Source: a bacterium (lineage in GTDB: Bacteria; SAR324; JACQKK01). From it: a DNA stretch of 64,000 nt. Positions 8,366-34,949 of the stretch are shown here, piece after piece (the first letter of the stretch is position 1; every line of letters begins with the position of its first letter). A program made the position numbers and the translations under genes. The notes under the pieces are model-generated. The model did no database searches, was not told where the DNA came from, and saw nothing but the letters and a program-made list of their open reading frames with translations. The stretch covers positions 1,156,443 through 1,220,442 of the forward strand of contig OZ252237.1 of the NCBI GenBank assembly GCA_965249525.1, in the 5' to 3' direction.

Positions 8366-8448
8366 CAGGCCCGCCAATTAGGAAACATCGCCTCGGCGCA
8401 GCTGCTGGGGGGGCTTTATTTAGGCGCGGCGTGGCGAGCCTCCAGGCA

Positions 8449-9093
8449 CTAACAGCTGATGCATAAAAGAGAATGCATCCCGTTACAAGAAGATGCTGAG
8501 CCGCCACCTATTCTATTGACATCGTCACTTCCACTCAGACCAGCAGCTCCAATGCTAGCTGTGGTGGACCAATTAGTGCAGGTAAAGCTAACAGCCTCTC
8601 TTGTAAGACCTGTCCAGTAAGACTGAGAGGAGGCACTATCTGTAACCGCATGCATTACTGTGGGGTTTTCATTAACCTCATAGAATTGCTGATAGCTGTC
8701 GGCAATTATGGTGGTGTCATCAGGGCGGTAGACCTTGCGGGTATCATCATCTTTTATAATCATATCGGGAGTAAATGCATCGTCTGCTATCACTGCCTGG
8801 TGGGTATAGCCCACGCTGTCGGCATGGGGCAGCACACTAGAATCGCTGTCCCCTTCCCTCTGGCATACGGCATCAGCAGCAGCTACTCCACTCAAGTCTC
8901 CCACACTGAAATCTCCGTCAGAGGTCGCAACGCTAACCCATAGATAAATCCTTTGGGGTGCAGGCAGGGTGGGCGTACCACCACCGCCTCCGCCGCCTCC
9001 GCAGGAGGCAAGCAGGCTGCCCAGCAGCATCACTGCCAGTCCGCTTGTCGGCAGCAGCTTCCAAGCTGTTTTGGTTGAAAGTTGAGAAAACAT
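8449..9093 (-). CDS. Secreted lipoprotein of the YLWVS...YRPDD...YWTG...LLC(V/I)S family (DUF1554-like); paralogue of the 32.2-35.0 kb genes
   Basis: ATG at 9093 with AAGGAG 7 nt upstream (the track ORF runs to 9195). Lipobox LLASC followed by a Gly run. Shared motifs IYLWVSVATS, AADAVCQREG, GYTHQAVI, VYRPDDTT, YWTGL, CTNWS, LLCISC. The family name is from memory of Pfam DUF1554 and was not searched. Confidence 0.7.
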   Translation of the reverse strand: MFSQLSTKTAWKLLPTSGLAVMLLGSLLASCGGGGGGGGTPTLPAPQRIYLWVSVATSDGDFSVGDLSGVAAADAVCQREGDSDSSVLPHADSVGYTHQAVIADDAFTPDMIIKDDDTRKVYRPDDTTIIADSYQQFYEVNENPTVMHAVTDSASSQSYWTGLTREAVSFTCTNWSTTASIGAAGLSGSDDVNRIGGGSASSCNGMHSLLCISC

Positions 9094-9139
9094 GATAATA
9101 CTCCTTAAAAAATTCCAAAAAAGCCGTGCTAAAAAATAT

Positions 9140-9230
9140 GCATGGTTCTTGTGCATGGTTCTTGCACATGGTTCTTGTGCATGGTTCTTGCACATGGTTC
9201 TTGTGCATGGTTCTTGTGCATGGTTTTTGC
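9140..9230. repeat. 13-bp tandem repeat x7 (RCATGGTTCTTGY) between divergent lipoprotein and rlpA genes
   Basis: Direct reading. Starts 47 bp upstream of the lipoprotein ATG (9093) and ends 68 bp before rlpA ATG 9298. Confidence 0.9.
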
Positions 9231-9297: not shown

Positions 9298-9954
9298 ATG
9301 CGGTTTGTGTGGTTGTTGATTTTATGTGTATGGGGCAGTGGGGAATTGGCTGCGGAGACCGCTTGCAGGGGGGTGAAGGGGGAGGATGGGTTATCGCCGT
9401 GGTTGAGGGGGATAGCTTCTTGGTATGGGCCTGGATTTCACGGCAAGCGCACCGCCAACGGTGAGATTTATGATCAGCATGCCTTAACCGCAGCGCATCC
9501 CAATTTGCCGATGGGAACGCGCATTGAGGTTAAGAATCTGCACAATGGTCACAAGATTAAGCTGCGGGTTAATGATCGTGGGCCTTATTCCCGTGGGCGT
9601 GTTTTGGATGTATCGCGCACGGCTGCCATTCAGCTGCAAATGCTGCGAGTCGGGGTTGCTACGGTGCAGATTCAGGTCTTGTGCTGGCCAACAGATATAG
9701 ATCAGCACTTGGGGCTGATTGCCTATAGACAGTATGTGGTGCAGGTGGGGGTGTTTGACACCCAACTCGAGGCACAGGCAGCCTTGAATCAGCTGGAGAC
9801 GCAGGTGCAGATGCCCCTGCTTTTGGATCTGCGCCCCCATAAGGCTTACGCCCTGGTGGCGGGACCTTATTACTCAATCAGAAAAGCCCGACAGACAGCC
9901 ACCCTGCTGCAAAAAAAGGGTTGGAGTACCTTCATCCGACAGCGGCGAAAATAA
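9298..9954 (+). CDS. rlpA: Septal ring lytic transglycosylase RlpA-like protein (DPBB domain + C-terminal SPOR domain)
   Basis: GIASWYGPGFHGKRTANGEIYDQHALTAAHPNLPMGTRIEVKNL...KIKLRVNDRGPY. The C-terminal YVVQVGVFDTQLEAQAAL...ALVAGPY is SPOR-like. Start taken at the internal ATG that gives signal peptide MRFVWLLILCVWG. Confidence 0.85.
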   Translation: MRFVWLLILCVWGSGELAAETACRGVKGEDGLSPWLRGIASWYGPGFHGKRTANGEIYDQHALTAAHPNLPMGTRIEVKNLHNGHKIKLRVNDRGPYSRGRVLDVSRTAAIQLQMLRVGVATVQIQVLCWPTDIDQHLGLIAYRQYVVQVGVFDTQLEAQAALNQLETQVQMPLLLDLRPHKAYALVAGPYYSIRKARQTATLLQKKGWSTFIRQRRK

Positions 9955-18942: not shown

Positions 18943-19197
18943 CACTCTTGCTAGTTGTTATACCATAAAAATCTACCTTCATCACCCTATCAGGACAACA
19001 GCAGGGTTGCAAATGGCTAAAATAGAAAAACCCCAGCTAGAAAAATCCCAGATAGCAACCATCTCCATGCTGCTTTTGAAAATGTACCCACAAATACCGC
19101 TGCTGCAAAATATACCAGAATTTAATCTTGCTGTTTGGGATTTATTTTTTTAGAATGGCGATGGTTGCTTTGCCCCGCCCCGCCAAAAATGTGATAA

Positions 19198-19274
19198 GAA
19201 GGCAGTGAGAAGGGAGAGAGGGGTAGTGAGGAAGGTAGTGAGAAGGCAGTGAGAAGGCAGTGAGAAGGCAGTGA
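19198..19274. repeat. 11-bp tandem repeat x~7 (GAAGGCAGTGA, partly degenerate)
   Basis: Direct reading. Confidence 0.8.
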
Positions 19275-19329
19275 GAGGGCAAAGAGGACACATAAGAGAA
19301 TACGCTGAAAGGGCGTAACAAAGTAAAAA

Positions 19330-19434
19330 CCAAGCAGAAAACCCAGCAGAAAACCCAGCAGAAAACCAAACAGAAAACCCAGCAGAAAACCCAGCAGAAA
19401 ACCCAGCAGAAAACCAAACAGAAAACCCAGCAGA
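19330..19434. repeat. 12-bp tandem repeat x~9 (CAGCAGAAAACC / CAAACAGAAAAC)
   Basis: Direct reading. Ends 12 bp before the AGGAGG of the 19457 ORF. Confidence 0.9.
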
Positions 19435-19456
19435 AGAAGCACGCCAGGAGGACAGC

Positions 19457-19768
19457 ATGCAAAATATCTTATCTGAAAGCCATCAAGAAAATATCAATCG
19501 CGGCATTGTATTGCTCATCTCCGGAGGGGCAACTGTACTATTAAAATGGGTGCTGCCAGCCGTAGCACCTTTGGCAGTAGTAGCATACGGCATTTATCGT
19601 TTATATACACGCAATTTTCGGGAAGGGGGCATTGCCATTATGATTGCCTTGCTGCTGTGGCTGCTGCGACATCAAGTTGGCTGGCTGCTGTGGGCAGTGG
19701 CTGCCTTAATGACAGGTCTCGGTCTGTTCCTGCTGATAGCTGGTCTGCGAGACCAACTCTCCAAATAA
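19457..19768 (+). CDS. Small integral membrane protein (hypothetical)
   Basis: 103 aa. AGGAGG-N5-ATG and three hydrophobic helices. Confidence 0.5.
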   Translation: MQNILSESHQENINRGIVLLISGGATVLLKWVLPAVAPLAVVAYGIYRLYTRNFREGGIAIMIALLLWLLRHQVGWLLWAVAALMTGLGLFLLIAGLRDQLSK

Positions 19769-20784: not shown

Positions 20785-22149
20785 ATGAATCAAAGCAGCC
20801 AACAAGTTAAGAGGTTGTCGCCGTTGGAGGAACAGCTGCGACTGCTGTTTGCCCAGGGTCGGCGACGGCAGGTGATGAAATTGCTCAGCCAGGCTGCAGC
20901 CCAGGATGTGGCAGATGCGCTGATGGTGCTGGAACACCATGAACGTCAACAAGCGGTAAAGCTGCTGGTGGAAGAGCAATTGCCGCTGGTGGTGAAATCA
21001 TTACCGCATCATGGGCGTGCCCGTGTGCTGGAGGTGTTGTCGGAACGGCGGGTGAAGAAGCTGCTGCCCCAACTGGAATTAGATGATGCAGCCGATGTGC
21101 TGGAATTGCTGCCAGAGGGCTTGCAGCAGCGTATTTTAAGGGGGATGCCACACCGCAAGCGGCGCATGCTGGGGCAGCTGCTGCATTATCCCCAAGACCG
21201 AGCCGGGGGGATTATGAATCCCCATGTGTTGCGCATCAATCAACGTCACACAGTACAGCAGGCTGTGGCCACCATACGTGCCTATCTGCGTTTCACCAAT
21301 ATGGAAGGATTTTACAATGTATTCGTGGTGGATGCAGAAGGTCGCTTGAAGGGGCAGATTCCCGCCTGGCGCCTGATACTGGCATCGCAGCAAGCCCCAG
21401 TGACCGAATTGATGCGCCCCTGTCTGGTGAGTGTACATCCCTATGTGCATCAGCAGGAGGTGGCGCGCTTGGCAGTGCGGCACCGCTTGGTCAGTGTACC
21501 AGTGCTCAATCAGGAGGGGCAGTTGATTGGGCGGGTGACCATTGACGACATTGTGGATGTGATTCAACGCGAGCATCATGAAGATGTGGGTCATTTGAGT
21601 GGTACGGGCAGGGAACAGGTGCATGCTTTATCCTTATGGGAGACCTTGCGTACGCGCATGCCTTGGTTGTGGGTGGCTTTGGCGGGGGAGTTTGCCTTGG
21701 CGATGTTCATGCAGCGCAACGGAGTGGTGCTGGAACGGACACCACAGCTGGCGTTTTTTATTCCCTTGGTGATGGCCATGGGGGGCAATGCTGGGGTGCA
21801 GTCAGCCAGCTTGGTGCTGCGGGGTTTAGCCAGTGGGGAAATTCGTTTGCGGGATTTTTGGCGTCGGATGCAGCGGGAGCTGCTGGTGGCAGGCAGCCTA
21901 GGCACGGTGCTGGCCCTCATGATTGCCCTGGCTGCTGGCGGTTTGACCGCAGGCATCCGCCTGGGGGCAGCGGTGGGACTGGCTGCCTGGGTCAACATCT
22001 TTTTCTCTACCTTGTTTGGTACAGCCATCCCGCTGCTTTTGCAAAAGCTGGGCAAAGACCCCGCCCTGGCCACAGGACCGTTTATTACCACCCTGAATGA
22101 CATCCTGGGCGTTGCCATCTACTTGGGCATTGCGCTATGGTTGCTGTGA
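20785..22149 (+). CDS. mgtE: Magnesium transporter MgtE
   Basis: 454 aa. MgtE N-domain, a CBS pair (...FVVDAEGRLKGQI..., ...PVLNQEGQLIGRVTIDDIVDVI), and a 5-TM C-terminus with GGNAGVQS. Confidence 0.92.
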   Translation: MNQSSQQVKRLSPLEEQLRLLFAQGRRRQVMKLLSQAAAQDVADALMVLEHHERQQAVKLLVEEQLPLVVKSLPHHGRARVLEVLSERRVKKLLPQLELDDAADVLELLPEGLQQRILRGMPHRKRRMLGQLLHYPQDRAGGIMNPHVLRINQRHTVQQAVATIRAYLRFTNMEGFYNVFVVDAEGRLKGQIPAWRLILASQQAPVTELMRPCLVSVHPYVHQQEVARLAVRHRLVSVPVLNQEGQLIGRVTIDDIVDVIQREHHEDVGHLSGTGREQVHALSLWETLRTRMPWLWVALAGEFALAMFMQRNGVVLERTPQLAFFIPLVMAMGGNAGVQSASLVLRGLASGEIRLRDFWRRMQRELLVAGSLGTVLALMIALAAGGLTAGIRLGAAVGLAAWVNIFFSTLFGTAIPLLLQKLGKDPALATGPFITTLNDILGVAIYLGIALWLL

Positions 22150-22185
22150 CCTGCACCGTCACACCCAACCATCTAGGAGGCAGTC

Positions 22186-23079
22186 ATGGTGGAACCCACC
22201 AAAAGCAAAAAGATTGAACTGTTTCTAATAGATGGCACTGCCAACGGAACTATAATTGCTCTTGGAGAAAAATGCCAATTCATCACTGCCCCAAGAGACA
22301 CTCTTCCCTGGTCGTCAGAAGACGAAACTTACCAGCCATACATAAACAAAGGAGTTTATATTATCAAAGGCGAAGAAAAACTGTATGTAGGACAGAGTAA
22401 GAATATCCACACCCGAATTCTCCAACATAGAAGAGAAAAAGATTGGGAGTGGCAGCGTTGCTGTGCTCTCACTTGCAATCACGATTGGTTTGGAGCTGAA
22501 GAGATAGATTACTTGGAAGAACGCCTTATTAAATTGGCTCAAATAGATCCCGATGGAAGAAAACTAGAAACAGATATGCGTCATACACCCGCTTCTGTCC
22601 ATCTTAAGAATAAAGACAAAAAATTTGCAGATGAAATTTTACAGGAAGCCTTGCTGGTATTTCCCTTGCTGGGGTTTGACTTTTTCTATGACAGCAGCAA
22701 TGCTGCCAAAGATGTCAGCATTCCCATTTTTAAGATAGAACAAGGGAAAATAACCGCAAGCGTCCGACTGCAAGACGACAAATGGGTGGTGCTAAAAGAT
22801 TCTCTCGGCAGACTTGAATTCACCCCCTCTTGGAAAACGCACTCTCTGGGCTACTATAAACAGAGAGAACGTTTGAAAGAAAATGGCATCTTGCAGCCAC
22901 AAGGAGACATGTTGGTATTTACCCAAGACACCCCCTTTGACAGTTCCTCCGCAGCAGCATCGGTTATTTATGGAATAGCGCAGAATGGCTACAAAATATG
23001 GAGAGTCCCAGAGGAAGGCAAACGTTACTCCCAGTGGCAGACTTATGGCGAGTGGGAAGACAGCCGACCAGAATCATGA
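22186..23079 (+). CDS. GIY-YIG nuclease-domain protein with C-terminal DUF4357-like module (array copy 1)
   Basis: 297 aa. AGGAGG-N5-ATG, 36 nt after the mgtE stop. KGVYIIKGEEKLYVGQSKNIHTRILQH...YLEERL fits the GIY/YIG/Arg/Glu pattern. C-terminal FDSSSAAASVIYGIAQNGYKIW fits the SxSAA...NG..W signature recalled for DUF4357. Visibly more AT-rich than copies 2, 3 and 5. Confidence 0.8.
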   Translation: MVEPTKSKKIELFLIDGTANGTIIALGEKCQFITAPRDTLPWSSEDETYQPYINKGVYIIKGEEKLYVGQSKNIHTRILQHRREKDWEWQRCCALTCNHDWFGAEEIDYLEERLIKLAQIDPDGRKLETDMRHTPASVHLKNKDKKFADEILQEALLVFPLLGFDFFYDSSNAAKDVSIPIFKIEQGKITASVRLQDDKWVVLKDSLGRLEFTPSWKTHSLGYYKQRERLKENGILQPQGDMLVFTQDTPFDSSSAAASVIYGIAQNGYKIWRVPEEGKRYSQWQTYGEWEDSRPES

Positions 23080-23128
23080 TCATAGTTCTTGATCTTATGC
23101 TACGGTGCAGCAGCAGTAAAATCGCAGG

Positions 23129-23185
23129 ATGACGCATAGCCTGGGCGTTGCCATCTACTTGGGCATTGCGCTATGGTTGCTGTGA
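23129..23185 (+). other. mgtE 3'-tail relic recast as an 18-codon mini-ORF (MTHSLGVAIYLGIALWLL*)
   Basis: 23140-23185 is identical to mgtE 22104-22149. An in-frame ATG lies at 23129. It is followed by GTGAC-N7-GTCAC and AGGAGG. Confidence 0.6.
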
Positions 23186-23221
23186 CTTGCACCGTCACAC
23201 CCAACCATCTAGGAGGCAGTC

Positions 23222-24115
23222 ATGATGGAACCCACCAAAAGCAAGACAGTTCAACTGACTTTTGAGGAGGGCACGCCCCACGGGATTGTCAATGTCAAGA
23301 GCCTCACCTCCCCCTACAATATTATGGCTGCCCCCCGCAACAGCCTGAACCAGCTGCCAGGCGAAAAAACCTACCAAAAACCAGGGAATTATTTGCTTAA
23401 AGGCGAAACAGAGGAGGGTTTAACCTTGTATGTGGGTCAAAGCGATAAGGTGCTCAAGCGCATCAAGCAACATAAGCGTGAAAGAGAATGGTGGACACAC
23501 TGCTGCCTGTTGACCTGCAAAAGCGACTGGCTCAATATTTCTCATGCACGCTACCTGGAACACCGCTTGTACCAACTTGCCCAAAACAACGGTGGTGTAA
23601 AGCTGGATAATGATATTGTGCCCACCCCTTCCTCTCTCTCCGAAGGACAGGCAACCGCCGCAGAAAATTTTCTGCAGGCTGCCTTGCTGGTATTGCCCTT
23701 GCTGGGGTTTGACTTTTTCTATGACAGCAGCAATGCTGCCCAAGATGCCCGCATTCCTATTTTTAAGCTAGAAATAGGCAATTCAAATGCAAGCGCCCGA
23801 CTGCAAGACGACAAATGGGTTGTACTAAAAGGATCTATTGCCAGAGGTGAAGAAGCCGATACTTTGAAAACATACGCTCCAGGATACTCTAAACAGAGAG
23901 AACGTTTGATAGAAAATAAAATTTTGCAGCCACAAGGAGAAGACATGTTGAAATTTATCCAAGACACCCCATTTACCAGCTCTTCCGCAGCAGCATCGGT
24001 TGTTTATGGACAACTGCTGAATGGACGCCAAACATGGAAAGTCCCAGAGGAAGGCAAACCTTACTCTCAGTGCCAGACTTATGGCGAGTGGGAAGACAGC
24101 CGACCAGAATCATGA
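23222..24115 (+). CDS. GIY-YIG nuclease-domain protein with C-terminal DUF4357-like module (array copy 2)
   Basis: 297 aa. GNYLLKGETEEGLTLYVGQSDKVLKRIKQH...YLEHRL, and C-terminal FTSSSAAASVVYGQLLNGRQTW. Confidence 0.8.
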   Translation: MMEPTKSKTVQLTFEEGTPHGIVNVKSLTSPYNIMAAPRNSLNQLPGEKTYQKPGNYLLKGETEEGLTLYVGQSDKVLKRIKQHKREREWWTHCCLLTCKSDWLNISHARYLEHRLYQLAQNNGGVKLDNDIVPTPSSLSEGQATAAENFLQAALLVLPLLGFDFFYDSSNAAQDARIPIFKLEIGNSNASARLQDDKWVVLKGSIARGEEADTLKTYAPGYSKQRERLIENKILQPQGEDMLKFIQDTPFTSSSAAASVVYGQLLNGRQTWKVPEEGKPYSQCQTYGEWEDSRPES

Positions 24116-24164
24116 TCATGGTTCTTGATCTTATGCTACGAGGCAGCAGCAGTAAAATCGCAGG

Positions 24165-24221
24165 ATGACGCATAGCCTGGGCGTTGCCATCTACTTGGGC
24201 ATTGCGCTATGGTTGCTGTGA
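24165..24221 (+). other. mgtE 3'-tail relic / 18-codon mini-ORF
   Basis: Same sequence and geometry as 23129-23185. Confidence 0.6.
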
Positions 24222-24257
24222 CTTGCACCGTCACACCCAACCATCTAGGAGGCAATC

Positions 24258-25148
24258 ATGAAGCAAAACCCGCAATCCAAGACAATTACACTATTTTTGG
24301 AAACTGGCACCCCCAACGGGGTGGTAAAGGCTGATGACCCCTCCTCCAACTGCCAAATTGCCGCTGCCCCCCGCAACCAGTTGCGCCAGCTGCTAGGCCA
24401 GAAAAAGTACCAAAAACCAGGGGCTTATCTGCTGAAAGGCGAACCAGAGGAGGATTTAACCCTGTATGTGGGTAAAACCAATAATTTCTCTGATCGCATT
24501 AAGAACCATGATTCCAAAAAAGACTGGTGGACACACTGCTGCCTGATAAACTCCAAAGATAAATGGCTAAATTCTGCTGATGCAGGCTACCTGGAACACC
24601 ACTTGTACCAACTTGCCAAAAGCAACGGGCAAGTAAGGCTGACTAACGAAAACGAGCCCTCTTCTCCTGATATCGCCGAAGACCGGGCAGTCGTCGCAGA
24701 AAATTTTCTGCAGGCTGCCTTGCTGATTTTCCCTTTGCTGGAGTTTAACTTTTTCTATGACAGTACCAGCACCCCCAAAGATGCCAGCATTCCCATTTTT
24801 AAGCTAGAAACCAAGAAAGTAGAGGCAACTGCCCGACTGCAAGGCGACAAATGGATTGTGCTAAAAGGTTCTTTTGCCGATCTTACAGCTGCCAGCTATT
24901 TAGAAAAGGACTATCCAGGCTACTATAAACGGAGAGAACGTTTGATAGAAAATGACATCTTGAAGAAACAAGGAGACATGTTGGTATTTACCCAAGATGC
25001 CCCATTTAACAGCCCTTCCACAGCAGCATCAATTATTATTGGAAAACCTTCTAATGGACGCCAAACATGGAAAGCACAAGAGAAGGGTAAAGCTTACTCC
25101 CAGTGGCAGACTTATGGCGAGTGGGAAGACAGCCGACCAGAATCATGA
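24258..25148 (+). CDS. GIY-YIG nuclease-domain protein with C-terminal DUF4357-like module (array copy 3)
   Basis: 296 aa. GAYLLKGEPEEDLTLYVGKTNNFSDRIKNH...YLEHHL, and C-terminal FNSPSTAASIIIGKPSNGRQTW. Confidence 0.8.
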   Translation: MKQNPQSKTITLFLETGTPNGVVKADDPSSNCQIAAAPRNQLRQLLGQKKYQKPGAYLLKGEPEEDLTLYVGKTNNFSDRIKNHDSKKDWWTHCCLINSKDKWLNSADAGYLEHHLYQLAKSNGQVRLTNENEPSSPDIAEDRAVVAENFLQAALLIFPLLEFNFFYDSTSTPKDASIPIFKLETKKVEATARLQGDKWIVLKGSFADLTAASYLEKDYPGYYKRRERLIENDILKKQGDMLVFTQDAPFNSPSTAASIIIGKPSNGRQTWKAQEKGKAYSQWQTYGEWEDSRPES

Positions 25149-25197
25149 TCATGGTTCTTGATCTTATGCTACGAGGCAGCAGCAGTAAAATCGCAGG

Positions 25198-25290
25198 ATG
25201 ACGCATAGCCTGGGCGTTGCCATCTGCCTGGGCGTTGCCATCTGCCTGGGCGTTGCCATCTACTTGGGCATTGCGCTATGGTTGCTGTAA
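25198..25290 (+). other. mgtE 3'-tail relic / 30-codon mini-ORF, extended by two in-frame 18-bp repeats
   Basis: CCTGGGCGTTGCCATCTG x3 at 25209-25262. The ORF stays open and ends at TAA 25288-25290. Confidence 0.6.
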
Positions 25291-25326
25291 CCTGCACCGT
25301 CACACCCAACCATCTAGGAGGCAATC

Positions 25327-26220
25327 ATGATGGAACCCACCAAAAGCAAAAAGATTGAACTGTTTCTAATAGATGGCACTGCCAACGGAACTATAATTGC
25401 TCTTGGAGAAAAATGCCAATTCATCACTGCCCCAAGAGACACTCTTCCCTGGTCGTCAGAAGACGAAACTTACCAGCCATACATAAACAAAGGAGTTTAT
25501 ATTATCAAAGGCGAAGAAAAACTGTATGTAGGACAGAGTAAGAATATCCACACCCGAATTCTCCAACATAGAAGAGAAAAAGATTGGGAGTGGCAGCGTT
25601 GCTGTGCTCTCACTTGCAATCACGATTGGTTTGGAGCTGAAGAGATAGATTACTTGGAAGAACGCCTTATTAAATTGGCTCAAATAGATCCCGATGGAAG
25701 AAAACTAGAAACAGATATGCGTCATACACCCGCTTCTGTCCATCTTAAGAATAAAGACAAAAAATTTGCAGATGAAATTTTACAGGAAGCCTTGCTGGTA
25801 TTTCCCTTGCTGGGGTTTGACTTTTTCTATGACAGCAGCAATGCTGCCAAAGATGTCAGCATTCCCATTTTTAAGATAGAACAAGGCAAAATAACCGCAA
25901 GCGTCCGACTGCAAGACGACAAATGGGTGGTGCTAAAAGATTCTCTCGGCAGACTTGAATTCACCCCCTCTTGGAAAACGCACTCTCTGGGCTACTATAA
26001 ACAGAGAGAACGTTTGAAAGAAAATGGCATCTTGCAGCCACAAGGAGACATGTTGGTATTTACCCAAGACACCCCCTTTGACAGTTCCTCCGCAGCAGCA
26101 TCGGTTATTTATGGAATAGCGCAGAATGGCTACAAAATATGGAGAGTCCCAGAGGAAGGCAAACGTTACTCCCAGTGGCAGACTTATGGCGAGTGGGAAG
26201 ACAGCCGACCAGAATCATGA
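25327..26220 (+). CDS. GIY-YIG nuclease-domain protein with C-terminal DUF4357-like module (array copy 4, near-identical to copy 1)
   Basis: Line-by-line comparison with 22186-23079 (offset 3141) shows only 2 substitutions: 22189 G/A (V2M) and 22746 G/C (synonymous). Confidence 0.8.
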   Translation: MMEPTKSKKIELFLIDGTANGTIIALGEKCQFITAPRDTLPWSSEDETYQPYINKGVYIIKGEEKLYVGQSKNIHTRILQHRREKDWEWQRCCALTCNHDWFGAEEIDYLEERLIKLAQIDPDGRKLETDMRHTPASVHLKNKDKKFADEILQEALLVFPLLGFDFFYDSSNAAKDVSIPIFKIEQGKITASVRLQDDKWVVLKDSLGRLEFTPSWKTHSLGYYKQRERLKENGILQPQGDMLVFTQDTPFDSSSAAASVIYGIAQNGYKIWRVPEEGKRYSQWQTYGEWEDSRPES

Positions 26221-26269
26221 TCATGGTTCTTGATCTTATGCTACGGTGCAGCAGCAGTAAAATCGCAGG

Positions 26270-26344
26270 ATGACGCATAGCCTGGGCGTTGCCATCTGCC
26301 TGGGCGTTGCCATCTACTTGGGCATTGCGCTATGGTTGCTGTGA
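26270..26344 (+). other. mgtE 3'-tail relic / 24-codon mini-ORF, with one extra in-frame 18-bp repeat
   Basis: CCTGGGCGTTGCCATCTG x2 at 26281-26316. The ORF is open through TGA 26342-26344. Confidence 0.6.
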
Positions 26345-26380
26345 CTTGCACCGTCACACCCAACCATCTAGGAGGCAGTC

Positions 26381-27781
26381 ATGATGGAACCCACCAAAAG
26401 CAAGACAGTTCAACTGACTTTTGAGAATGGCACGCCCCACGGGATTGTCAATGTCAAGAGCCTCACCTCCCCCTACAATATTATGGCTGCCCCCCGCAAC
26501 AGCCTGAGCCAGCTGCCAGGCGAAAAAACCTACCAAAAACCAGGGAATTATTTGCTTAAAGGCGAAACAGAAGAAGATTTAACCCTGTATGTGGGTCAAA
26601 GCGATGATGTCCTCAAACGCATCAAGCAACATTATCAAAAAAAAGAATGGTGGACACACTGCTGCCTGTTGACCAGTAAAGGCGACGAACTCAACATCTC
26701 TCATACACGCTATCTGGAACGCTGCTTGTACGATCTTGCCCAAGACAACGGTTATGTAAAGCTGGACAATGAGAAGGCACCCGACTCTTCCCCTCTCTCC
26801 CAAGAACAGAAAAACGAAGCAGAACATTTTCTTCAGGATGCCTTGCTGGTATTTCCCTCGCTGGGTTTTAACTTTTTCTATGACAGCGCCGGCCGTCCCC
26901 AAGCTGCCAGCCCTGCCATTGCTAAGGATAAGAAAGAATCATCCGACAGCACCCCTGCTGCCAAAGATGTGAGCATTCCCATTTTTAAGATAAAACAAGG
27001 CAAAATAACCGCAACTGTCCAACTGCAAGACGACAAATGGGTGGTGCTAAAAGATTCTCTCGGCAGACTTGAATTCACCCCCTCTTGGAAAACGCACTCT
27101 CTGGGCTACTATAAACAGAGAGAACGTTTGAAAGAAAATGGCATTTTGCAGAAACAAGGAGAAACCTTAATTTTTACCCAAGACACCCCATTTACCAGCC
27201 CTTCCGCAGCAGCATCCATTGTTCTTGCAAGCACCATGAATGGTTACAAAACATGGAGAGTCCCAGAGGAAAACAAACCTTACTCCCAGTGGCAGACTTA
27301 TGGCGAGTGGGAAAAAATCTACCTAGAAGCTACCTCAGATGCCAGCCTTCCCGTTTCCAAGAGTGAAAGAGACCCATCCTATGACGGTGCCAGTGCTGCC
27401 AAAGATGCCAGCCTTCCCATTTTTAAGGTAAAAATAGGCAAAGCAAATGCAAGCGCCCGACTGCAAGGCGACAAATGGGTGGTGCTAAAAGGTTCTCTCG
27501 GCAGACTTGAATTCACCCCCTCTTTGAAAACGCACTTTCTGGGCTACTATAAACAGAGAGAACGTTTGAAAGAAAATGGCATTTTGCAGGAACAAGAAGA
27601 CACCTTAATTTTTACCCAAGACACCCCATTTACCAGCTCTTCCGCAGCAGCATCCATTGTTCTTGCAAGACCCCTGAATGGCTACAAAACATGGAAAGTC
27701 CCAGAAAAAGACAAACCTTACTCCCAGTGGCAGACTTATGGCGAGTGGGAAGCAACCCAGCTAGAAGCCGCCGCCTCATGA
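26381..27781 (+). CDS. GIY-YIG nuclease-domain protein with two tandem C-terminal DUF4357-like modules (array copy 5)
   Basis: 466 aa. The N-terminus is nearly identical to copy 2 for about the first 60 codons. The C-module (AAKD.S.PIFK...QTYGEWE) occurs twice with a 438-bp period (from 26960 and from 27398). Confidence 0.8.
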   Translation: MMEPTKSKTVQLTFENGTPHGIVNVKSLTSPYNIMAAPRNSLSQLPGEKTYQKPGNYLLKGETEEDLTLYVGQSDDVLKRIKQHYQKKEWWTHCCLLTSKGDELNISHTRYLERCLYDLAQDNGYVKLDNEKAPDSSPLSQEQKNEAEHFLQDALLVFPSLGFNFFYDSAGRPQAASPAIAKDKKESSDSTPAAKDVSIPIFKIKQGKITATVQLQDDKWVVLKDSLGRLEFTPSWKTHSLGYYKQRERLKENGILQKQGETLIFTQDTPFTSPSAAASIVLASTMNGYKTWRVPEENKPYSQWQTYGEWEKIYLEATSDASLPVSKSERDPSYDGASAAKDASLPIFKVKIGKANASARLQGDKWVVLKGSLGRLEFTPSLKTHFLGYYKQRERLKENGILQEQEDTLIFTQDTPFTSSSAAASIVLARPLNGYKTWKVPEKDKPYSQWQTYGEWEATQLEAAAS

Positions 27782-27821
27782 TGCTGTGTGCCTGTTTCTC
27801 ATATAGAATGGACAGCTGCCT

Positions 27822-28667
27822 ATGAAAGGTGTGATTCTAGCCGCCGGCTACGGCAGCCGTTTTCTGCCCGCCTCTAAAACCATTCCCAAAGAACTCTTTC
27901 CCCTGCTGGACAAGCCTGCCATTGCCTTCATCGTAGAAGAATTTATCCAGGCAGGCATTGAACAGCTGATTGTGGTCACCTCCCGTCGTAAAAAACCACT
28001 GGATGATTTCTTTGACCGCGAAATAGAACTAGAACAAGCCCTAACTGGCGAAAAAAGAAAGTGCATTATCCCTCCCCAATTGGATGTATGCCTGCTGCAC
28101 CAGCAGCGCATGCTGGGTTCTGGCGACGCCTTAATGCAGCTGGAAGCCTGGGTAGGCAAGGAAGCCTTTGTGGTAGCTTATCCCGATGACATCCATATGG
28201 ATGGACCCTCGCTGACCGCACAGCTGATGGCAGTACACCAGCGCAGCCAGCGCAGTGTGCTTTCTTTGCAGGAAACCCCAGGCGATATCTCACGCTACGG
28301 CGTGGCAGTAGTCAAATCGCAGCATGGCGTACAACTGGTCACCCAACTGGTAGAAAAACCCCCCCAGGGCAAAGAACCCAGTCGCTTGGTCAGTTATGGA
28401 CGCTACCTGTACACCTCAGAAATTTTCAGCGCACTTAAACAAACACGGGCGTATTTCAGTGGCTCGGGTGAATTTACCCAAACCCAAGCCATCCAGCAGC
28501 TGGCCACAGAAGGACGCATGGCAGCGGTAACTTTTGAGGGTCGCATTTTGGATGTGGGAGAACCAGCAGGATACTTAAAATCCATCATAGCGTATGCCCT
28601 CACACGCCCAGATCTTAAAGAAGAACTGCTGCATTTTATCAAAGAGGTCAGTGCCCGCCACAACTAA
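27822..28667 (+). CDS. galU: UTP--glucose-1-phosphate uridylyltransferase
   Basis: MKGVILAAGYGSRFLPASKTIPKELFPLLDKPAIAFIVEE..., the canonical GalU N-terminus. Confidence 0.9.
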   Translation: MKGVILAAGYGSRFLPASKTIPKELFPLLDKPAIAFIVEEFIQAGIEQLIVVTSRRKKPLDDFFDREIELEQALTGEKRKCIIPPQLDVCLLHQQRMLGSGDALMQLEAWVGKEAFVVAYPDDIHMDGPSLTAQLMAVHQRSQRSVLSLQETPGDISRYGVAVVKSQHGVQLVTQLVEKPPQGKEPSRLVSYGRYLYTSEIFSALKQTRAYFSGSGEFTQTQAIQQLATEGRMAAVTFEGRILDVGEPAGYLKSIIAYALTRPDLKEELLHFIKEVSARHN

Positions 28668-28726: not shown

Positions 28727-30043
28727 ATGGCAGGATTGGTTGTAGTAGGAGCGCAGTGGGGGGATGAAGGCAAGGGCAAATTGGTGGATTTGCTCACGCA
28801 GCACGCAGAAATGGTGGTGCGGTTTCAAGGAGGCAGCAACGCAGGACACACCGTATATGTTGGGAATAAAAGCTTTGTGCTGCATTTAATTCCCTCGGGG
28901 ATTTTTCATGCCAAGACCGTAAGCGTGCTGGGCAACGGGGTGGTGATAGACCCCCAGGCGCTGCTAAAAGAAATCCAACAGCTGCAAGCAGGGGGAGTCA
29001 ATGTAGCCAAGAATTTACGCATCAGCAGAACCGCGCACTTGGTCATGCCTTACCACAAAGCCTTTGACCTGCTGCGAGAAAAACTACGCGGTGCTGGCAA
29101 AATTGGCACCACAGGTCGGGGCATCGGCCCTACCTATGAAGACAAAATGGCACGTCGCGGCATACGCTTTTGCGACCTGGAAGAGTTGTCAGCCGACAAC
29201 CTGCGCCTAAACCTGACACAGATCCTAGCAGAGAAAAATCTGCTGCTGCACCAACTATACGGCAGCCAGCAAGCCCCCCTGCAAGCCGATGCCATTCTGC
29301 AGGAGTACCTGCAATACCATCAACAACTCAAACCCTTCCTGTGTGATGCCTCTCAACTGGTCAACCAAGCCCTGGATGCAGGCAAACTGGTACTATTTGA
29401 AGGCGCTCAAGGCTGCGGACTAGATGTAGACCACGGCAGCTACCCCTATGTCACCTCCTCCAATACAGTGGCAGGCGGTGCCTGCACTGGCAGCGGAGTG
29501 GGACCCACCCGCATCTCGCAGGTACTGGGCATCACCAAGGCCTACACCACCCGCGTGGGAGAAGGACCCTTCCCCACAGAACTGCAGCAAGACCCCGTGG
29601 GAGAACACTTGAGCCAGCAGGGGCAAGAATTCGGTGCCACCACAGGAAGAACAAGACGCTGCGGCTGGTTTGATGCCGTCATCGTCAAACAAGCCATCCG
29701 CCTCAGTTCCATCACAGCCCAAGCCCTCACCAAACTGGATGTACTCAGCGGACTAAAAATACTCAAAATCGCCCACGCCTGGTGCGATGACCAAGGCAAC
29801 CACTTCCAAGACGCTCCCCATCACTTCAGCCAGCGCAGCAACCTGCGCCCCGTCTATGAAGAACTCCCAGGATGGCAAACCTCCCTGCGCAACATCACCC
29901 AATGGCAGCATCTCCCCCAAAATGCCCAACGCTACGTCCAACGTATAGAAACCCTCACCGGCGTCCCCGCAGCCATCATCTCCGTGGGGCCGCATCGCCA
30001 TGAAACCATATGGAGAGAACCCCTGCTGCAACTGATGAAATAA
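28727..30043 (+). CDS. purA: Adenylosuccinate synthetase
   Basis: 438 aa. GAQWGDEGKGK, GTTGRGIGPTYEDK. Confidence 0.97.
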   Translation: MAGLVVVGAQWGDEGKGKLVDLLTQHAEMVVRFQGGSNAGHTVYVGNKSFVLHLIPSGIFHAKTVSVLGNGVVIDPQALLKEIQQLQAGGVNVAKNLRISRTAHLVMPYHKAFDLLREKLRGAGKIGTTGRGIGPTYEDKMARRGIRFCDLEELSADNLRLNLTQILAEKNLLLHQLYGSQQAPLQADAILQEYLQYHQQLKPFLCDASQLVNQALDAGKLVLFEGAQGCGLDVDHGSYPYVTSSNTVAGGACTGSGVGPTRISQVLGITKAYTTRVGEGPFPTELQQDPVGEHLSQQGQEFGATTGRTRRCGWFDAVIVKQAIRLSSITAQALTKLDVLSGLKILKIAHAWCDDQGNHFQDAPHHFSQRSNLRPVYEELPGWQTSLRNITQWQHLPQNAQRYVQRIETLTGVPAAIISVGPHRHETIWREPLLQLMK

Positions 30044-30051
30044 GCCCCGCC

Positions 30052-30936
30052 ATGCACCCCTCCCGCCTCCCACAACAACTGGTAGCCTGGCTGGAAAACC
30101 TCCAGCGAAGCAAAATGCGCTACCTCAGCGGTATTCAACCCCTGTCTGCACTCCCTGTCCCCACAACTCCGCAGCCCACACCGCAGCCCACACCACAGCC
30201 CACACCACAGCCCACACCGCAGCCCACACCACAGCCCACACCACAGCCCACACCACAGCCCACACCACAGCCCACGGCACAGCCCACACCGCAGCCCCCT
30301 GCCACACCCCCCATGACCAACCATCCCAGCTTCCAAGACTCCCTGCTGTTCCATCACAGCCAAGCCGAAAAAATCGCCGCCCAAACCCATACCCTGGAAG
30401 ACCTCCACACCGCCTTTGCCACCTGCACCCGCTGCCGATTGGCGCAAAACCGCATCCAACTAGTCTTCGGCTGCGGCAACCCGCATCCAGGCATCGTCTT
30501 CATCGGTGAAGGTCCAGGGGCAGAAGAAGACCAACAAGGACTCCCCTTCGTGGGAGCCGCAGGACGCCTGCTCACCGACCTCATCTCCGCTATGGGATTA
30601 ACCCGCCAGGATGTCTATATCGCTAATATCGTTAAATGCCGACCCCCAAGCAATCGCAACCCCCAGCCCGATGAAATCCAAGCCTGCATGCCCATCCTCA
30701 ACCACCAACTCCAATTGCTCAACCCCAAACTCATGGTGACACTAGGTGCTGTGCCCCTCAATGCTCTGATACCCAACTCCCCAGGCATTACCCACGCCCG
30801 CGGACACCTGACCCAGTACCGACAATGGCCGCTGCTGCCCACCTACCACCCCTCCTACCTGCTGCGAAAACCCTCAGCACTGGACGAATGCTGGCAGGAT
30901 TTTCACCAGGCCCTCAAACAGGTCTATGCCAGTTAG
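30052..30936 (+). CDS. Family-4 uracil-DNA glycosylase with an N-terminal (PQPT)n extension
   Basis: GNPHPGIVFIGEGPGAEEDQQGLPFVGAAGRLL...IANIVKCRPPSNRNP...HPSYLLR. Start taken at the ATG just after the purA stop. Confidence 0.85.
   Translation: MHPSRLPQQLVAWLENLQRSKMRYLSGIQPLSALPVPTTPQPTPQPTPQPTPQPTPQPTPQPTPQPTPQPTPQPTAQPTPQPPATPPMTNHPSFQDSLLFHHSQAEKIAAQTHTLEDLHTAFATCTRCRLAQNRIQLVFGCGNPHPGIVFIGEGPGAEEDQQGLPFVGAAGRLLTDLISAMGLTRQDVYIANIVKCRPPSNRNPQPDEIQACMPILNHQLQLLNPKLMVTLGAVPLNALIPNSPGITHARGHLTQYRQWPLLPTYHPSYLLRKPSALDECWQDFHQALKQVYAS
30169..30297. repeat. 12-bp tandem repeat x~11 (CCRCAGCCCACA) in the UDG N-terminal extension
   Basis: Direct reading. In frame, encoding (PQPT)n. Confidence 0.9.
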
Positions 30937-32183: not shown

Positions 32184-32922
32184 ATGTTTGCTCAATTCCC
32201 AACCAAAACAGCTTGGAGGCTGCTGCTGGCAGGCGGACTGGCAGTGATGCTGCTGGGTGCCTTGCTTGCCTCCTGCGGCGGGGGTGGTGGAGGCGGCGGC
32301 GGAGAATGATGGTACTCCCATTGCCGACAATGGTGGGACCGACCCCATGCCCGACCCCATCGTCCTGATTCCATCCACAAAGATTTATCTATGGGTTAGC
32401 GTTGCGACCTCTAACGGAAATTTCAGTGTGGGAGATTTCAGTGAGGGAGATTTGAGTGGAGTAGCTGCTGCCCATGCCGTATGCCAGAGGGAAGGGAACG
32501 GCGAGCGCAGTGTCCTGCCCAACACCGATAGCGTGGAATATACCCACCAGGCAGTGATAGGAAGCAAAGACCCTGTAACTCTCAATATCACTTTTCATCC
32601 CAGCACCATTATAGCAACTGGTGATACCCGTGGTGTCTACCGCCCTGACGACAGCACCAAAATTGCCAACAGCTATGCGAATTTTATTAGTGATCCTGAT
32701 GTTTTGGCGGCTGTGGCTTCAGGTTCTGCGAAGAGATACTGGACAGGTCTTGGAGACATGGGAAATATTGGCGACACCTGTCTTAGTTGGAGCTCTTCCT
32801 CTTCTTCAAACAATGGAATTCGTGGTAGAAGTAACAAACTTGCCTTCAACAGAATAGGCGGCTCCACCAACAAATCTTCTTGTAATAACTCGACTTTCCA
32901 TCTTTTATGTGTCAGCCATTAG
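32184..32922 (+). pseudogene. DUF1554-like lipoprotein paralogue, frameshifted just after the lipobox
   Basis: GGAG-N7-ATG 32184 gives [41 protein letters not shown], stopping at 32307-32309. The mature domain ([12 protein letters not shown]...IYLWVSVATS...YRPDDST...YWTG...LLCVSH) continues in the +1 frame to 32922. A G5 run (32280-32284) and an extra A relative to the next paralogue (GAGAATGAT vs GAGATGAT) lie between the two frames. Confidence 0.6.
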
Positions 32923-32996: not shown

Positions 32997-33843
32997 ATGT
33001 TTGCTCAATTCCCAACCAAAACAGCTTGGAGGCTGCTGCTGGCAGGCGGACTGGCAGTGATGCTGCTGGGTGCCTTGCTTGCCTCCTGCGGAGGTGGCGG
33101 AGGCGGCGGCGGAGATGATGGTACTCCCATTGCCGACAATGGTGGGACCAACGCCCATGCCTGACACGCCCGACCCCATGCCCGACCCCATGCCCGACAC
33201 CATGCCTGACACCACGCCCGACACCACGCCCGACCCCACGCCCGACCCCACGCCCGACCCCACGCCCGACCCCACGCCCGACACCACGCCCGACCCGCCT
33301 CCGCCGCCACCCCCACCCCCACCTACAAGGGCTTATCTGTGGGTTAGTGCTGCGGACTCTACGCCAGAGAATACCGCTACGACCCTTAAAGGAGATTTTG
33401 GTGGTACAGTTGCTGCCGATGTCGTATGCAGGGGGCGGGCAAGCGGTGCTGGACTGCCCGCTGCTGCTGCTGGCTATACGCACAAGGCAGTGGTAGCAAC
33501 CAATTCATTTAATCCCAGTAACATTCCAGTAAATAATTCCCATAAGGTCTACCGCCCTGACGACAGCACCAAAATTGCCAACAGCTATGCAGACTTTTTT
33601 AATGCTTCTATATCTGTAACCAACTCGGTGGCAAGTACAAGTGGTAAATACTGGACAGGTATTGATGTTGATGATGGTGCTTTTAAGATTTCGGAGAGTA
33701 ATTGCACCGATTGGAGTTCCGATACTGCTAGTAGTAGCTTCGGCGATCCTCGCCAAAAAGATCATAAAAGATTAGGGGAACCAAGCGTCTTCTTATCATG
33801 TACTAGGGCACGCCCTCTGTTATGTGTCAGCTATCAGCCTTAA
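32997..33843 (+). pseudogene. DUF1554-like lipoprotein paralogue with (PDPT)n linker, frameshifted after the lipobox
   Basis: It has the same leader and signal peptide as 32184. The first frame stops at 33162-33164 (...DNGGTNAHA*). The mature part (PMPDTPDP...[10 protein letters not shown]...VYRPDDST...YWTG...LLCVSYQP) lies in another frame, shifted near the CCC at 33154-33156. Confidence 0.6.
33169..33300. repeat. 12-bp tandem repeat x11 (CCCGACMCCAYG) encoding the Pro/Asp/Thr linker
   Basis: Direct reading. In frame with the mature-domain frame. Confidence 0.9.
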
Positions 33844-34130: not shown

Positions 34131-34259
34131 TCCTTTTATAAGGAGATAAGTAGCTAAAAATATTGCGCCTTATAGTGCTGACGGGTATGATCTTGTTGCT
34201 AGTTTTTTATGGCACTCTGCCACAAAAGATACTTTTACAAAACACCTGGGGATGTCGCT

Positions 34260-34949
34260 ATGCGCTTTCAATTTCAAATTGGTTCTATACTTTCTTATAA
34301 ACTTGCGTCTCTTAAGACAGCTTTGGTTCTGCTGCTGGCAGTGATGCTGTTGGGCGCCTTGCTTGCCTCCTGTAAAGACAAGGGTCGCAGCAAGAAGGGA
34401 GGATCTGCCAGCTCCGACAGTGAAGATGCTTCCGAAGCCACTACCCTGGATGATTCTGATAAGATTTATCTGTGGCTTAGCAGTGCGAGATCTGGCGGAG
34501 CTTTGGGCGGCGCAGCTGGTGCCCATACCGTATGCCAGGGGGAAGGGAACGGCGAGGACAGTGTCCTGCCCAATACCGATACCGTGGGCTATACCCACCA
34601 GGCAGTGATAGGAGACAGTTTATTTAATCCGGGTGATATTATAGAAGATGGAGATGAGCGTGGGGTCTACCGCCCTGACGACAGCACCCAAATTGCCAAC
34701 AGCTATGCGGACTTCTTTGATGTGTTGGGTGTCGATGCACTGGCTACGGTGGCAGACGGCTCTAATAAATTTTACTGGACAGGTCTTGAGAGTGAGATGG
34801 TTTCCTCAAGCACCTGTTCTAATTGGACCACATCCGACGGCAGTATACGTGGATCTATTGGTTCAAGTGGAGTAGTCAGCTTCTCCAGATTAGGCAACTC
34901 CGAGGTATTTTGTTCCTCGCAGTTGCATCTTTTATGTGTCAGCCATTAG
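34260..34949 (+). CDS. DUF1554-like secreted lipoprotein paralogue (intact)
   Basis: The internal ATG of the track ORF gives MRFQFQIGSILSYKLASLKTALVLLLAVMLLGALLASC (lipobox). Family motifs IYLWLSSARS, AHTVCQGEG, GYTHQAVI, VYRPDDST, YWTGL, CSNWT, LLCVSH. Confidence 0.75.
   Translation: MRFQFQIGSILSYKLASLKTALVLLLAVMLLGALLASCKDKGRSKKGGSASSDSEDASEATTLDDSDKIYLWLSSARSGGALGGAAGAHTVCQGEGNGEDSVLPNTDTVGYTHQAVIGDSLFNPGDIIEDGDERGVYRPDDSTQIANSYADFFDVLGVDALATVADGSNKFYWTGLESEMVSSSTCSNWTTSDGSIRGSIGSSGVVSFSRLGNSEVFCSSQLHLLCVSH

Follow-up and report, generated by a model that had tools for sequence, protein, structure and literature searches.

Why would a bacterium keep five diverged copies of one nuclease-like gene, head to tail, between two housekeeping genes? 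We addressed this question for a 64,000-nt stretch of a genome of the SAR324 lineage (assembly GCA_965249525.1, contig OZ252237.1; this whole stretch is hereafter the window), in which five intact and co-oriented open reading frames (ORFs), designated c1 to c5, stand between the Mg2+ transporter gene mgtE and a galU-like gene, with purA coming next (Table 1). We found that the copies arose by tandem duplication of a segment that includes the 3' end of mgtE, that they have exchanged domains by recombination, that selection has kept their frames open, and that the array differs in the number and makeup of its units between two close genomes. Our judgment leans, by a modest degree, towards reading the array as a tandemly duplicated, recombining and diversifying family of single-chain restriction-like endonucleases that would act on foreign DNA.

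The starts of the five genes (22186, 23222, 24258, 25327 and 26381; spacing 1036, 1036, 1069 and 1054 bp, all on one strand) agree with those given in an earlier reading made without database searches, hereafter the sequence-only reading, and the AGGAGG-N5-ATG region that it described is present ahead of 5/5 copies. The number of five is the count as assembled. Copies c1 and c4 had been described as two nucleotides apart, which is true for the coding sequence (CDS; G/A at 22189 and G/C at 22746), while the 1,053-nt units differ at 5 nt. Both are, as had also been noted, more AT-rich than the other copies (GC 43.5% versus 46.5-47.9%), and the bias is concentrated in the N-terminal half, where the GC content of third codon positions (GC3) is 34.7% versus 54-58%. 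The array genes (GC 43-48%) lie below mgtE (57.2%), purA (55.6%) and the window mean (52.8%). An outside donor for the AT-rich c1 nuclease domain was considered and rejected, the closest relatives found being the array's own paralogs. It is only the composition that would suggest a horizontal origin of this domain.

Table 1. Features of the interval between mgtE and the galU-like gene, in window coordinates.
Feature	Coordinates	Strand	Profile support
mgtE (Mg2+ transporter), upstream housekeeping neighbor	20785..22149	+	Pfam MgtE_N/CBS/MgtE
Original block of mgtE tail and 36-nt leader, with AGGAGG-N5-ATG	22104..22185	+	
c1, 297 aa	22186..23079	+	GIY-YIG + DUF4357 (PDC-S14)
Spacer 1-2: 60-nt post-gene tail, then copy of mgtE tail and leader (23140-23221)	23080..23221	+	
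c2, 297 aa	23222..24115	+	GIY-YIG + DUF4357 (PDC-S14)
Spacer 2-3: post-gene tail, then copy of mgtE tail and leader (24176-24257)	24116..24257	+	
c3, 296 aa	24258..25148	+	GIY-YIG + DUF4357 (PDC-S14)
Spacer 3-4: tail and leader layout, plus 18-nt unit GCCTGGGCGTTGCCATCT x3.7 (25208-25274)	25149..25326	+	
c4, near-duplicate of c1, 297 aa	25327..26220	+	
Spacer 4-5: tail and leader layout, plus 18-nt unit x2.7 (26280-26328)	26221..26380	+	
c5, chimera, 466 aa, two putative reader modules	26381..27781	+	
Terminal spacer ahead of galU-like gene, homologous to internal post-gene tails	27782..27821	+	
NTP-transferase (galU-like), downstream housekeeping neighbor	27822..28667	+	Pfam

The spacers tell how the copies were made. 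Each internal spacer consists of a post-gene tail of ~60 nt, a copy of the last ~46 nt of mgtE with its stop codon, and a 36-nt leader; the leader has the consensus ...CATCTAGGAGGCA[G/A]TCATG ahead of every copy. The left end of the repeat unit is position 22104, inside mgtE (mgtE tail 22104-22149), where the homology of the c4 unit starts. At the other end, the terminal spacer that separates c5 from galU can be aligned with the internal post-gene tails: the internal junction, ...CGCATAGC followed by CTGGGCG..., corresponds to ...CATATAGAATGGACAGCTGCCT right before the galU start. Because the internal junction aligns with the pre-galU spacer, the event is explained as an ordinary tandem duplication of the segment formed by the mgtE 3' end, the gene and the pre-galU spacer. 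The terminal spacer, being homologous to the internal post-gene tails, is then the right end of the ancestral duplicated segment. The duplication junction shows short microhomology. The mgtE-tail copies are a tandem-duplication scar and not the trace of a site-specific insertion. The 18-nt unit GCCTGGGCGTTGCCATCT derives from the start of the mgtE tail and is present once only in the first two spacers of the window.

Every unit is a direct repeat; no inverted copies or imperfect inverted repeats flank them, and the palindromes found were of 16-23 nt only. An integron-type cassette array was rejected, since the 64 kb hold no integrase or recombinase, the spacer is unstructured (fold z = -0.16, no better than shuffled) and flanking inverted repeats are absent. 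A phase-variable shufflon of the hsdS type was rejected as well, given direct repeats only and no recombinase gene in the 64 kb.

The duplicated segment also carries possible signals for expression. A weak sigma70-like site, TTGCCA-18-TATGGT, is located at 22112-22141 and recurs in each tail copy, and no terminator-like site was predicted on the plus strand in any spacer. Read-through from mgtE across the 36-nt gap and initiation inside the units are both possible, and the mgtE tail was possibly retained since it carries the promoter-like site along with a ribosome-binding site. A search of the whole window against Rfam returned no RNA element.

Besides the scar, the copies show a mosaic structure. 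A sliding-window comparison of the units revealed three DNA blocks that are 91-100% identical between copies. The first runs from the tail through the leader into the CDS, of which it covers the initial ~20 nt; the second is the DNA encoding the linker (FLQxALLVFPLLGFDFFYDSS); the third covers the last ~60 nt of the CDS and the post-gene tail. Conversely, nuclease-domain DNA of c1 is 40-55% identical to that of c2 and c3, while DNA of the C-terminal modules (C-modules) is 60-90% identical. The protein identity of the nuclease domains is 41% for c1-c2, 34% for c1-c3 and 52% for c2-c3. The sequence-only reading had put these values at well under half, which stands for c1 against the others and was slightly overstated for c2-c3. 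In the windows over the joints, near-identical nucleotides go together with a low synonymous divergence (dS) and therefore point to gene conversion rather than purifying selection alone.

The clearest case of exchange is c5. Its nuclease domain has 81% amino acid identity to that of c2 and 38% to that of c1, while for its C-module the values are 61% and 81%, respectively. The first ~190 nt of c5 are near-identical to c2. In a maximum-chi-square test with 251 informative sites, we detected one breakpoint in the linker, at ~26840: the sites on the left favor c2 by 163:19 and those on the right are split 14:55 (chi2 115; 0/10,000 permutations reach it). By this significant result, c5 is a chimera of a c2-type nuclease and a c1-type reader. 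Its two reader modules are encoded by a tandem repeat of 438 nt (26956-27751) with 91% identity, and its C-terminus is distinct, ...EWEATQLEAAAS.

A still younger event is visible as well. A 1.31-kb tract, 22104-23412, which starts with the c1 unit, crosses the spacer and enters c2 by ~190 nt, recurs at 25245-26571 on the plus strand, with 5 mismatches in the first 1,053 nt and then 3 mismatches and one 18-nt indel. This tract marks a very recent duplication or conversion, in which 22104-23412 was the source. The earlier suggestion that the array is old and still duplicating is thus borne out by dS values of 0.3-0.7 between paralogs together with the near-identical tract. What the sequence-only reading had missed is the cataloging of the proteins as PDC-S14 (see below), the 466-aa length of c5 with its two readers, and the mosaic, domain-shuffled structure, which is the main interest of the locus.

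A comparison of the mgtE-galU interval with a relative, as that reading had proposed, was possible with ENA ERZ25069801 contig_58 (locus L007). The gene order there, PhoH, M48 peptidase, DUF3047, mgtE, array, NTP-transferase and purA, is the same as in the window, and the flanks are 94-96% identical in DNA. The sister genome is also multi-unit, with three units whose junctions are of the type seen in the window. One unit is c3-like, one is c5-like with two reader modules, and the terminal unit ends ...EWEATQLEAASA, like c5; a c1-type nuclease domain is absent from the L007 array. When the L007 array was painted in 120-nt segments, we observed a patchwork of best matches to different units of the window, with identity ranging from 72 to 98%. 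Even the closest cross-genome pair, c5 and L007 unit B, has a dS of 0.15, three times the flank value. The L007 spacers carry the 18-nt repeat x3.7 (8336-8402) and x2.7 (9898-9946), as do the last two spacers of the window, and a positional correspondence of these last two spacers is hinted at because the repeat counts are equal in both genomes. The array is thus older than the divergence of the two genomes, and it was remodeled afterwards.

As a side observation, antisense ORFs of 107 aa occur at the same relative position in the c2-type nuclease domains (23420-23743 and 26579-26902, minus strand). They have counterparts in L007 (8644-8967 and 10202-10525, minus strand), with the length conserved in four units of two genomes. 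Their presence is probably a side effect of codon composition.

To characterize selection on the copies, the ratio of nonsynonymous to synonymous divergence (dN/dS) was computed by the Nei-Gojobori method over whole genes. For the paralogs the ratio was 0.53-0.94 at a dS of 0.2-0.7, compared to 0.18-0.38 for the flanking genes between the two genomes (dS ~0.05). Several 25-codon windows had dN/dS >1, while the windows over catalytic motifs had 0.08-0.4. In a neutral simulation (20,000 runs), the open frame was kept in 0.025% of the runs at the divergence of c2-c3 and in none at that of c1-c2. All indels between copies are in frame. Since neutral survival of the ORFs is this rare and the indels preserve the frame, the genes are kept intact by selection while their sequence changes fast.

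What the proteins are was assessed with profiles. All copies match PADLOC PDC-S14 profiles near full length, with E-values from 1.6e-53 to 1e-101. For example, PDLC04923 is matched by c1 (1.6e-53), c2 (3.8e-74), c3 (1.1e-77) and c5 (1e-101), with protein residues ~2-286 aligned to model positions 21-311 of 320. In NCBIfam, no model specific to the array proteins exists. The PDC systems are 145 predicted phage defence candidates embedded in Type I restriction-modification (R-M), BREX or DISARM loci (10.1101/2024.01.29.577857). An exhaustive search with c3 returned 4,252 cluster representatives when the cutoff was E<=1e-3 and 1,898 when it was E<=1e-10 (clusters at 50% identity). These family members are mostly 280-310 aa long and can be aligned over their whole length; outside the two array genomes, the nearest relatives are ~30-35% identical.

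The assignment to GIY-YIG and DUF4357 made in the sequence-only reading was supported by Pfam, firmly for DUF4357, which is strong in all copies, and at or just below threshold for GIY-YIG. The GIY-YIG scores (PF01541) were 23.6 bits for c1/c4, 23.4 for c3, 21.9 for c5 and 17.6 for c2, with the gathering score of 22.6 bits leaving c5 and c2 under threshold. In an alignment of 121 members (c3 numbering), Y57, Y70, G72, R80, H84, E113 and N130 are near-invariant, and by this conservation they correspond to what is predicted to be the canonical GIY-YIG catalytic set. Other conserved positions lie in an N-terminal extension and in the C-module core S-x-S-x-A ... G ... W. The motif set G-x-Y...LYVG...R-I-x-x-H...YLE was found in 5/5 copies. 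The motifs quoted earlier for every product thus hold for the catalytic set in all five, with the reservation that c3 reads YVGKT and SPSTAAS.

The structural comparison gave a weaker signal. A profile of the family searched against PDB matched GIY-YIG proteins only (UvrC, I-TevI, SLX1), and weakly, with E-values of 0.2-0.6. The AlphaFold2 model of c3 (pLDDT 94.9, pTM 0.87) has two domains, with an N-terminal alpha/beta nuclease domain at ~1-165, a linker helix at 141-161 and a C-terminal module at 172-296; the beta-beta-alpha-beta-alpha core comprises residues 55-123. A Foldseek search of PDB with the whole c3 model gave no significant neighbor (the nuclease domain alone was not queried).

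The C-terminal DUF4357 module (PF14267) was detected with E-values from 1.9e-14 to 5.6e-34 and scores of 53.7-116.3 bits against a gathering score of 38.4, twice in c5. The same profile matches 40/40 C-modules of the family. Other family members have one nuclease domain and 2-7 DUF4357 modules. The multiplication of reader modules is a recurrent theme of the family. As separate examples, P0018, P0019, P0045 and P0062, from other organisms, combine one GIY-YIG domain with 3-7 tandem DUF4357 modules and reach up to 993 aa. DUF4357 has been reported fused to GmrSD enzymes (PMC4619093) and used as a 'McrB alias' (PMC11090510).

We also examined where the family occurs elsewhere. It is single-copy in 54/54 records, of which 52 are plasmid and 2 are phage; the phage ones were found among 50,697 phage records. 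A protein-pattern scan of metagenomes added five distant loci with one copy each, and a scan of metagenome contigs for the exact spacer had 0 matches. The plasmid members stood beside R-M genes in 3/3 contexts inspected: the Acinetobacter member is directly downstream of hsdRMS, the Bacteroides member adjoins a Type I restriction endonuclease and a methyltransferase, and the Rhodothermus member adjoins a helicase, a nucleotidyltransferase and a methyltransferase. The earlier statement that the family usually occurs as single genes, often near DNA methylases, was therefore supported. No mgtE was found near the family members at six distant loci, and the link to the Mg2+ channel that had been suggested did not survive as a functional one; it is best explained as positional.

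Taken with their architecture, it is reasonable to regard the array proteins as single-chain 'nuclease plus DNA reader' restriction-like enzymes. In each, an N-terminal GIY-YIG nuclease would be joined through a conserved linker helix to one or two DUF4357 modules at the C-terminus, these being RAMA-related putative DNA readers. We infer that the proteins are metal-dependent DNA endonucleases, that DUF4357 reads DNA, and that the enzymes have a role against foreign DNA, with paralogs differing in their target or in their susceptibility to phage counter-measures. The multi-specificity nuclease arsenal offered by the sequence-only reading is thus the best-supported reading of the locus, reached by such inference only.

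In the history that we propose, a single ancestral gene stood between mgtE and its galU-like neighbor. The segment that begins ~46 nt before the end of mgtE and stops just short of galU was duplicated in tandem, and because this segment was duplicated, every spacer has the mgtE tail, the leader with its ribosome-binding site and the weak promoter-like site. Unequal crossing-over and gene conversion then acted via three DNA joints, which are the conserved blocks at the leader, at the linker and at the 3' end. As an outcome, copy number changed, the joints were homogenized, and nuclease and reader domains were shuffled, as in c5 with its c2-type nuclease, c1-type reader and extra reader. The domains evolve fast while selection keeps the genes intact. 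The resulting nucleases would each have their own target or evasion profile towards phage DNA or other foreign DNA, and their action would plausibly depend on DNA modification or be sensitive to it; the array would be transcribed with, or just behind, mgtE.

Several observations weigh against this picture. The literature on PDC-S14 that we found consists of genome surveys only, and no nuclease or defence assay of any family member was found there. The neighborhood is unlike that of typical family members, with no methyltransferase, R-M or known defence gene in the 64-kb window. The conserved Asn (N130 in c3; >90% of the family) is kept in c2, c3 and c5 and is replaced by Thr in c1/c4, at ~residue 128, so that the active site of c1/c4 may be altered. 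The dN/dS values near 1 could also be compatible with relaxed constraint, and two of the three L007 units contain frameshifts. The greatest divergence is in the nuclease domain and not in the presumed reader, unlike what a simple 'new reader, new specificity' model has. Speculatively, the nuclease domain may have diverged so far because an allele is old or foreign (GC3 of 35% in c1) or because anti-restriction proteins exert pressure.

The reader role is open to similar objections. RAMA, a domain found fused to adenine methylases and to many restriction nucleases, was predicted to read N6-methyladenine (6mA) when it was defined (PMC4738411), and fusions of GIY-YIG and RAMA have been proposed as candidate 6mA-reading Type IV enzymes (PMC11037411). 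The link of DUF4357 to RAMA (PF18755; gathering score 35.2 bits) is sub-threshold, the best scores being 27 bits for c5 and 32.7 bits for the family member P0012. A RAMA match at E<=0.01 was seen in 13/40 modules, always at RAMA positions ~45-100, its C-terminal half. The model of the isolated C-module (pLDDT 94.9) had no PDB match with E<0.3 in Foldseek, where 6PBD and 7YDT were outside the top 50. Likewise, a profile of the C-modules searched against PDB missed the solved RAMA domains and returned a spurious designed-repeat protein alone. Moreover, the solved RAMA domains (CcrM 6PBD, MPND 7YDT) make non-specific backbone contacts, and the 6mA preference was not reproduced (PMC9963953). From these profile comparisons, the DUF4357 module appears to be at best related to RAMA and not a demonstrated member.

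The most serious alternative, which we consider doubtful, is that one nuclease gene was amplified, as a by-product or for gene dosage, in a genome prone to tandem duplication, and that the copies are drifting under relaxed constraint while their function does not diversify. The whole-gene dN/dS, the loss of the conserved Asn from c1/c4, the frameshifted units of the sister genome, the housekeeping context and the other tandem duplicates in the window (two 95%-identical 830-aa ORFs and three adjacent DUF1554 genes) would all fit it. However, five ORFs are intact where the neutral simulation retains the frame so rarely, the indels are in frame only, and catalytic and fold-defining residues are invariant across copies. 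The windows with dN/dS >1 also stand alongside constrained catalytic windows. As to the frameshifts, all are single-base and in homopolymers (C6->C5, A8->A9), and one -1/+1 pair is compensating. This is typical of long-read errors, and the L007 frameshifts are probably such.

We regard as unlikely that the proteins have a cellular role, in DNA repair or processing or coupled to mgtE and Mg2+, with the array supplying isoforms or dosage. The place directly behind mgtE is conserved in the two genomes, the gap measures 36 nt, no terminator was predicted, the GIY-YIG enzymes UvrC and SLX1 act in repair, and defence genes are absent from the neighborhood. On the other hand, mgtE was missing near six other family loci, and the members elsewhere adjoin plasmid R-M systems and were cataloged from their embedding in defence systems. 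Fast amino acid turnover, a change of copy number between ~95%-identical genomes and low GC are also atypical of housekeeping repair genes.

An assembly artefact, in which the alleles that co-existing strains have of a single hypervariable gene were joined end to end, or mis-assembly raised the copy number, is very improbable. The source is apparently an assembly of an uncultivated organism, and a 1.05-kb repeat at 99.5% identity is hard to assemble. Still, the four junctions from gene tail to mgtE tail are impossible to obtain from a single-copy locus, and they carry individual single-nucleotide differences and different 18-nt repeat counts. In the independent assembly, three units are joined by this type of junction and the repeat counts of the spacers agree with those of the window, and the source contig, 1.72 Mb long, implies long reads.

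Proteins of the I-TevI type carry their GIY-YIG catalytic domain at the N-terminus, and a linker joins it to a DNA-binding region at the C-terminus. Least credible of all is a selfish, self-copying element of the homing or cassette type, a possibility that the sequence-only reading had entertained, here taken to target the mgtE 3' end and to restore mgtE on insertion: every unit does start with a copy of the mgtE 3' end and the domain order resembles I-TevI, but the other unit end aligns with the native pre-galU spacer as a duplication scar, the same locus is occupied in the sister genome, the 64 kb have no intron, intein, integrase, recombinase, transposase or attC-like structure and no further copies of array units, the family is this rare in phage records, the spacer is absent from metagenome contigs, and the array, unlike I-TevI, lacks phage context and evidence of mobility and has DUF4357 as its C-terminal family.

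The restriction-like reading of the array can be extended, tentatively, to a bacterial counterpart of NLR-type immune clusters. The array would then be a dedicated diversification locus in which modules are duplicated, exchanged and multiplied through three DNA joints, giving new target or evasion specificities on the timescale of strain divergence and serving as a main innate defence of an uncultivated lineage with a small genome. We see this as possible and rather less than probable. Like plant NLR or R-gene clusters and TRIM5-type arrays, the locus combines tandem duplication, unequal crossing-over, conversion, elevated dN/dS, intact ORFs and copy-number differences. The analogy concerns the evolutionary mode only, as the proteins are unrelated and the immune function of the array is a putative one.

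Comparison with known systems separates what is familiar from what is new. With PDC-S14 the array proteins share a full-length profile match, the two-domain architecture, a length of ~290 aa and the catalytic residues. Elsewhere, however, PDC-S14 is single-copy and R-M-adjacent, while here five diverged, recombining copies occupy an operon-like housekeeping position with no methyltransferase nearby. Ahi29725I and Apa233I are modification-dependent (Type IV) endonucleases in which a winged helix is fused to GIY-YIG (PMC11037411). They likewise have a GIY-YIG nuclease and a small DNA-reading domain in one chain, such a reader role being presumed for the array. The same paper names GIY-YIG-RAMA fusions as likely counterparts. 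The array differs in that its reader is DUF4357/RAMA-like and not a winged helix, and in the reversed order with an N-terminal nuclease. For a Type IV character of the array proteins, in which cleavage would depend on a DNA modification, the evidence is indirect and consists of the lack of a methyltransferase from the window and of the DUF4357 fusions to GmrSD and McrB. In Helicobacter pylori, domains move between paralogous R-M specificity genes via conserved flanks (PMC3467074). There, as in hsdS shufflons and in the array, diverged domains are swapped between paralogs by homologous recombination at conserved linker or flank DNA. The array, in contrast, swaps whole nuclease and reader domains rather than target-recognition domains of S or M subunits. 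Furthermore, unlike hsdS shufflons, it is made of direct repeats and has no invertase, which implies duplication, deletion or conversion and not reversible switching.

The protein family is already known as a cataloged candidate, and there is nothing unusual about tandem duplication or gene conversion as such. The novelty lies in the organization: a diversified, domain-shuffling array of a single-gene restriction-like nuclease, outside defence islands and variable between close relatives. We found no published description of such an array in the literature, in agreement with the sequence-only reading.

The locus could be informative for a large family, since GIY-YIG-DUF4357 proteins form ~1,900 clusters (50% identity) at E<=1e-10. 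It is a natural experiment with five intact variants and swapped nuclease and reader domains, to which the sister array adds. Its natural chimeras could show which domain sets the target, whether DUF4357 reads modification and why readers multiply. The array would also document in bacteria the birth-and-death, domain-shuffling evolution usually tied to eukaryotic immune clusters. It further indicates that genes of a defence type can multiply within a housekeeping operon and away from defence islands, out of sight of searches that rely on such islands.

The rest of the 64-kb window is of a housekeeping kind. It includes genes for PBP1A, the ATP synthase operon, PhoH, an M48 peptidase, a uracil-DNA glycosylase (UDG), alanine dehydrogenase and MatE, along with M16 peptidases, an aldehyde dehydrogenase, an arginine decarboxylase and aconitase. 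For aconitase, the best outside match was 70% identical and the next ones ~64%, and for mgtE the best match among GTDB representatives was 38% identical.

Other repeated features were observed in the window. Two adjacent ORFs of ~830 aa (42106-44604 and 44696-47203, plus strand) are 95% identical (796/836 residues); their products are hydrophobic, have no Pfam match and are probably membrane proteins. This pair suggests a genome prone to tandem duplication. Four DUF1554 paralogs, a small expanded family, are located at 8449-9195 (minus strand) and at 32257-32922, 33070-33843 and 34209-34949 (plus strand), the last three being adjacent; their Pfam matches have E-values of 1e-6 to 1e-8, around the gathering score. 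A low-complexity repeat at 19122-19462 contains three overlapping minus-strand ORFs of the FLLGFLLG/CWVFCLVF type, has an AT skew of 0.40-0.51 and is positioned just upstream of an ORF for a small membrane protein (19457-19768). In the sister genome this stretch aligns with a gap (L007 4228-4385). Finally, a UDG-superfamily protein (30010-30936, plus strand) has an N-terminal (PTPQ)n repeat of about a dozen units, encoded at ~30125-30320 with a GC skew of -0.5.

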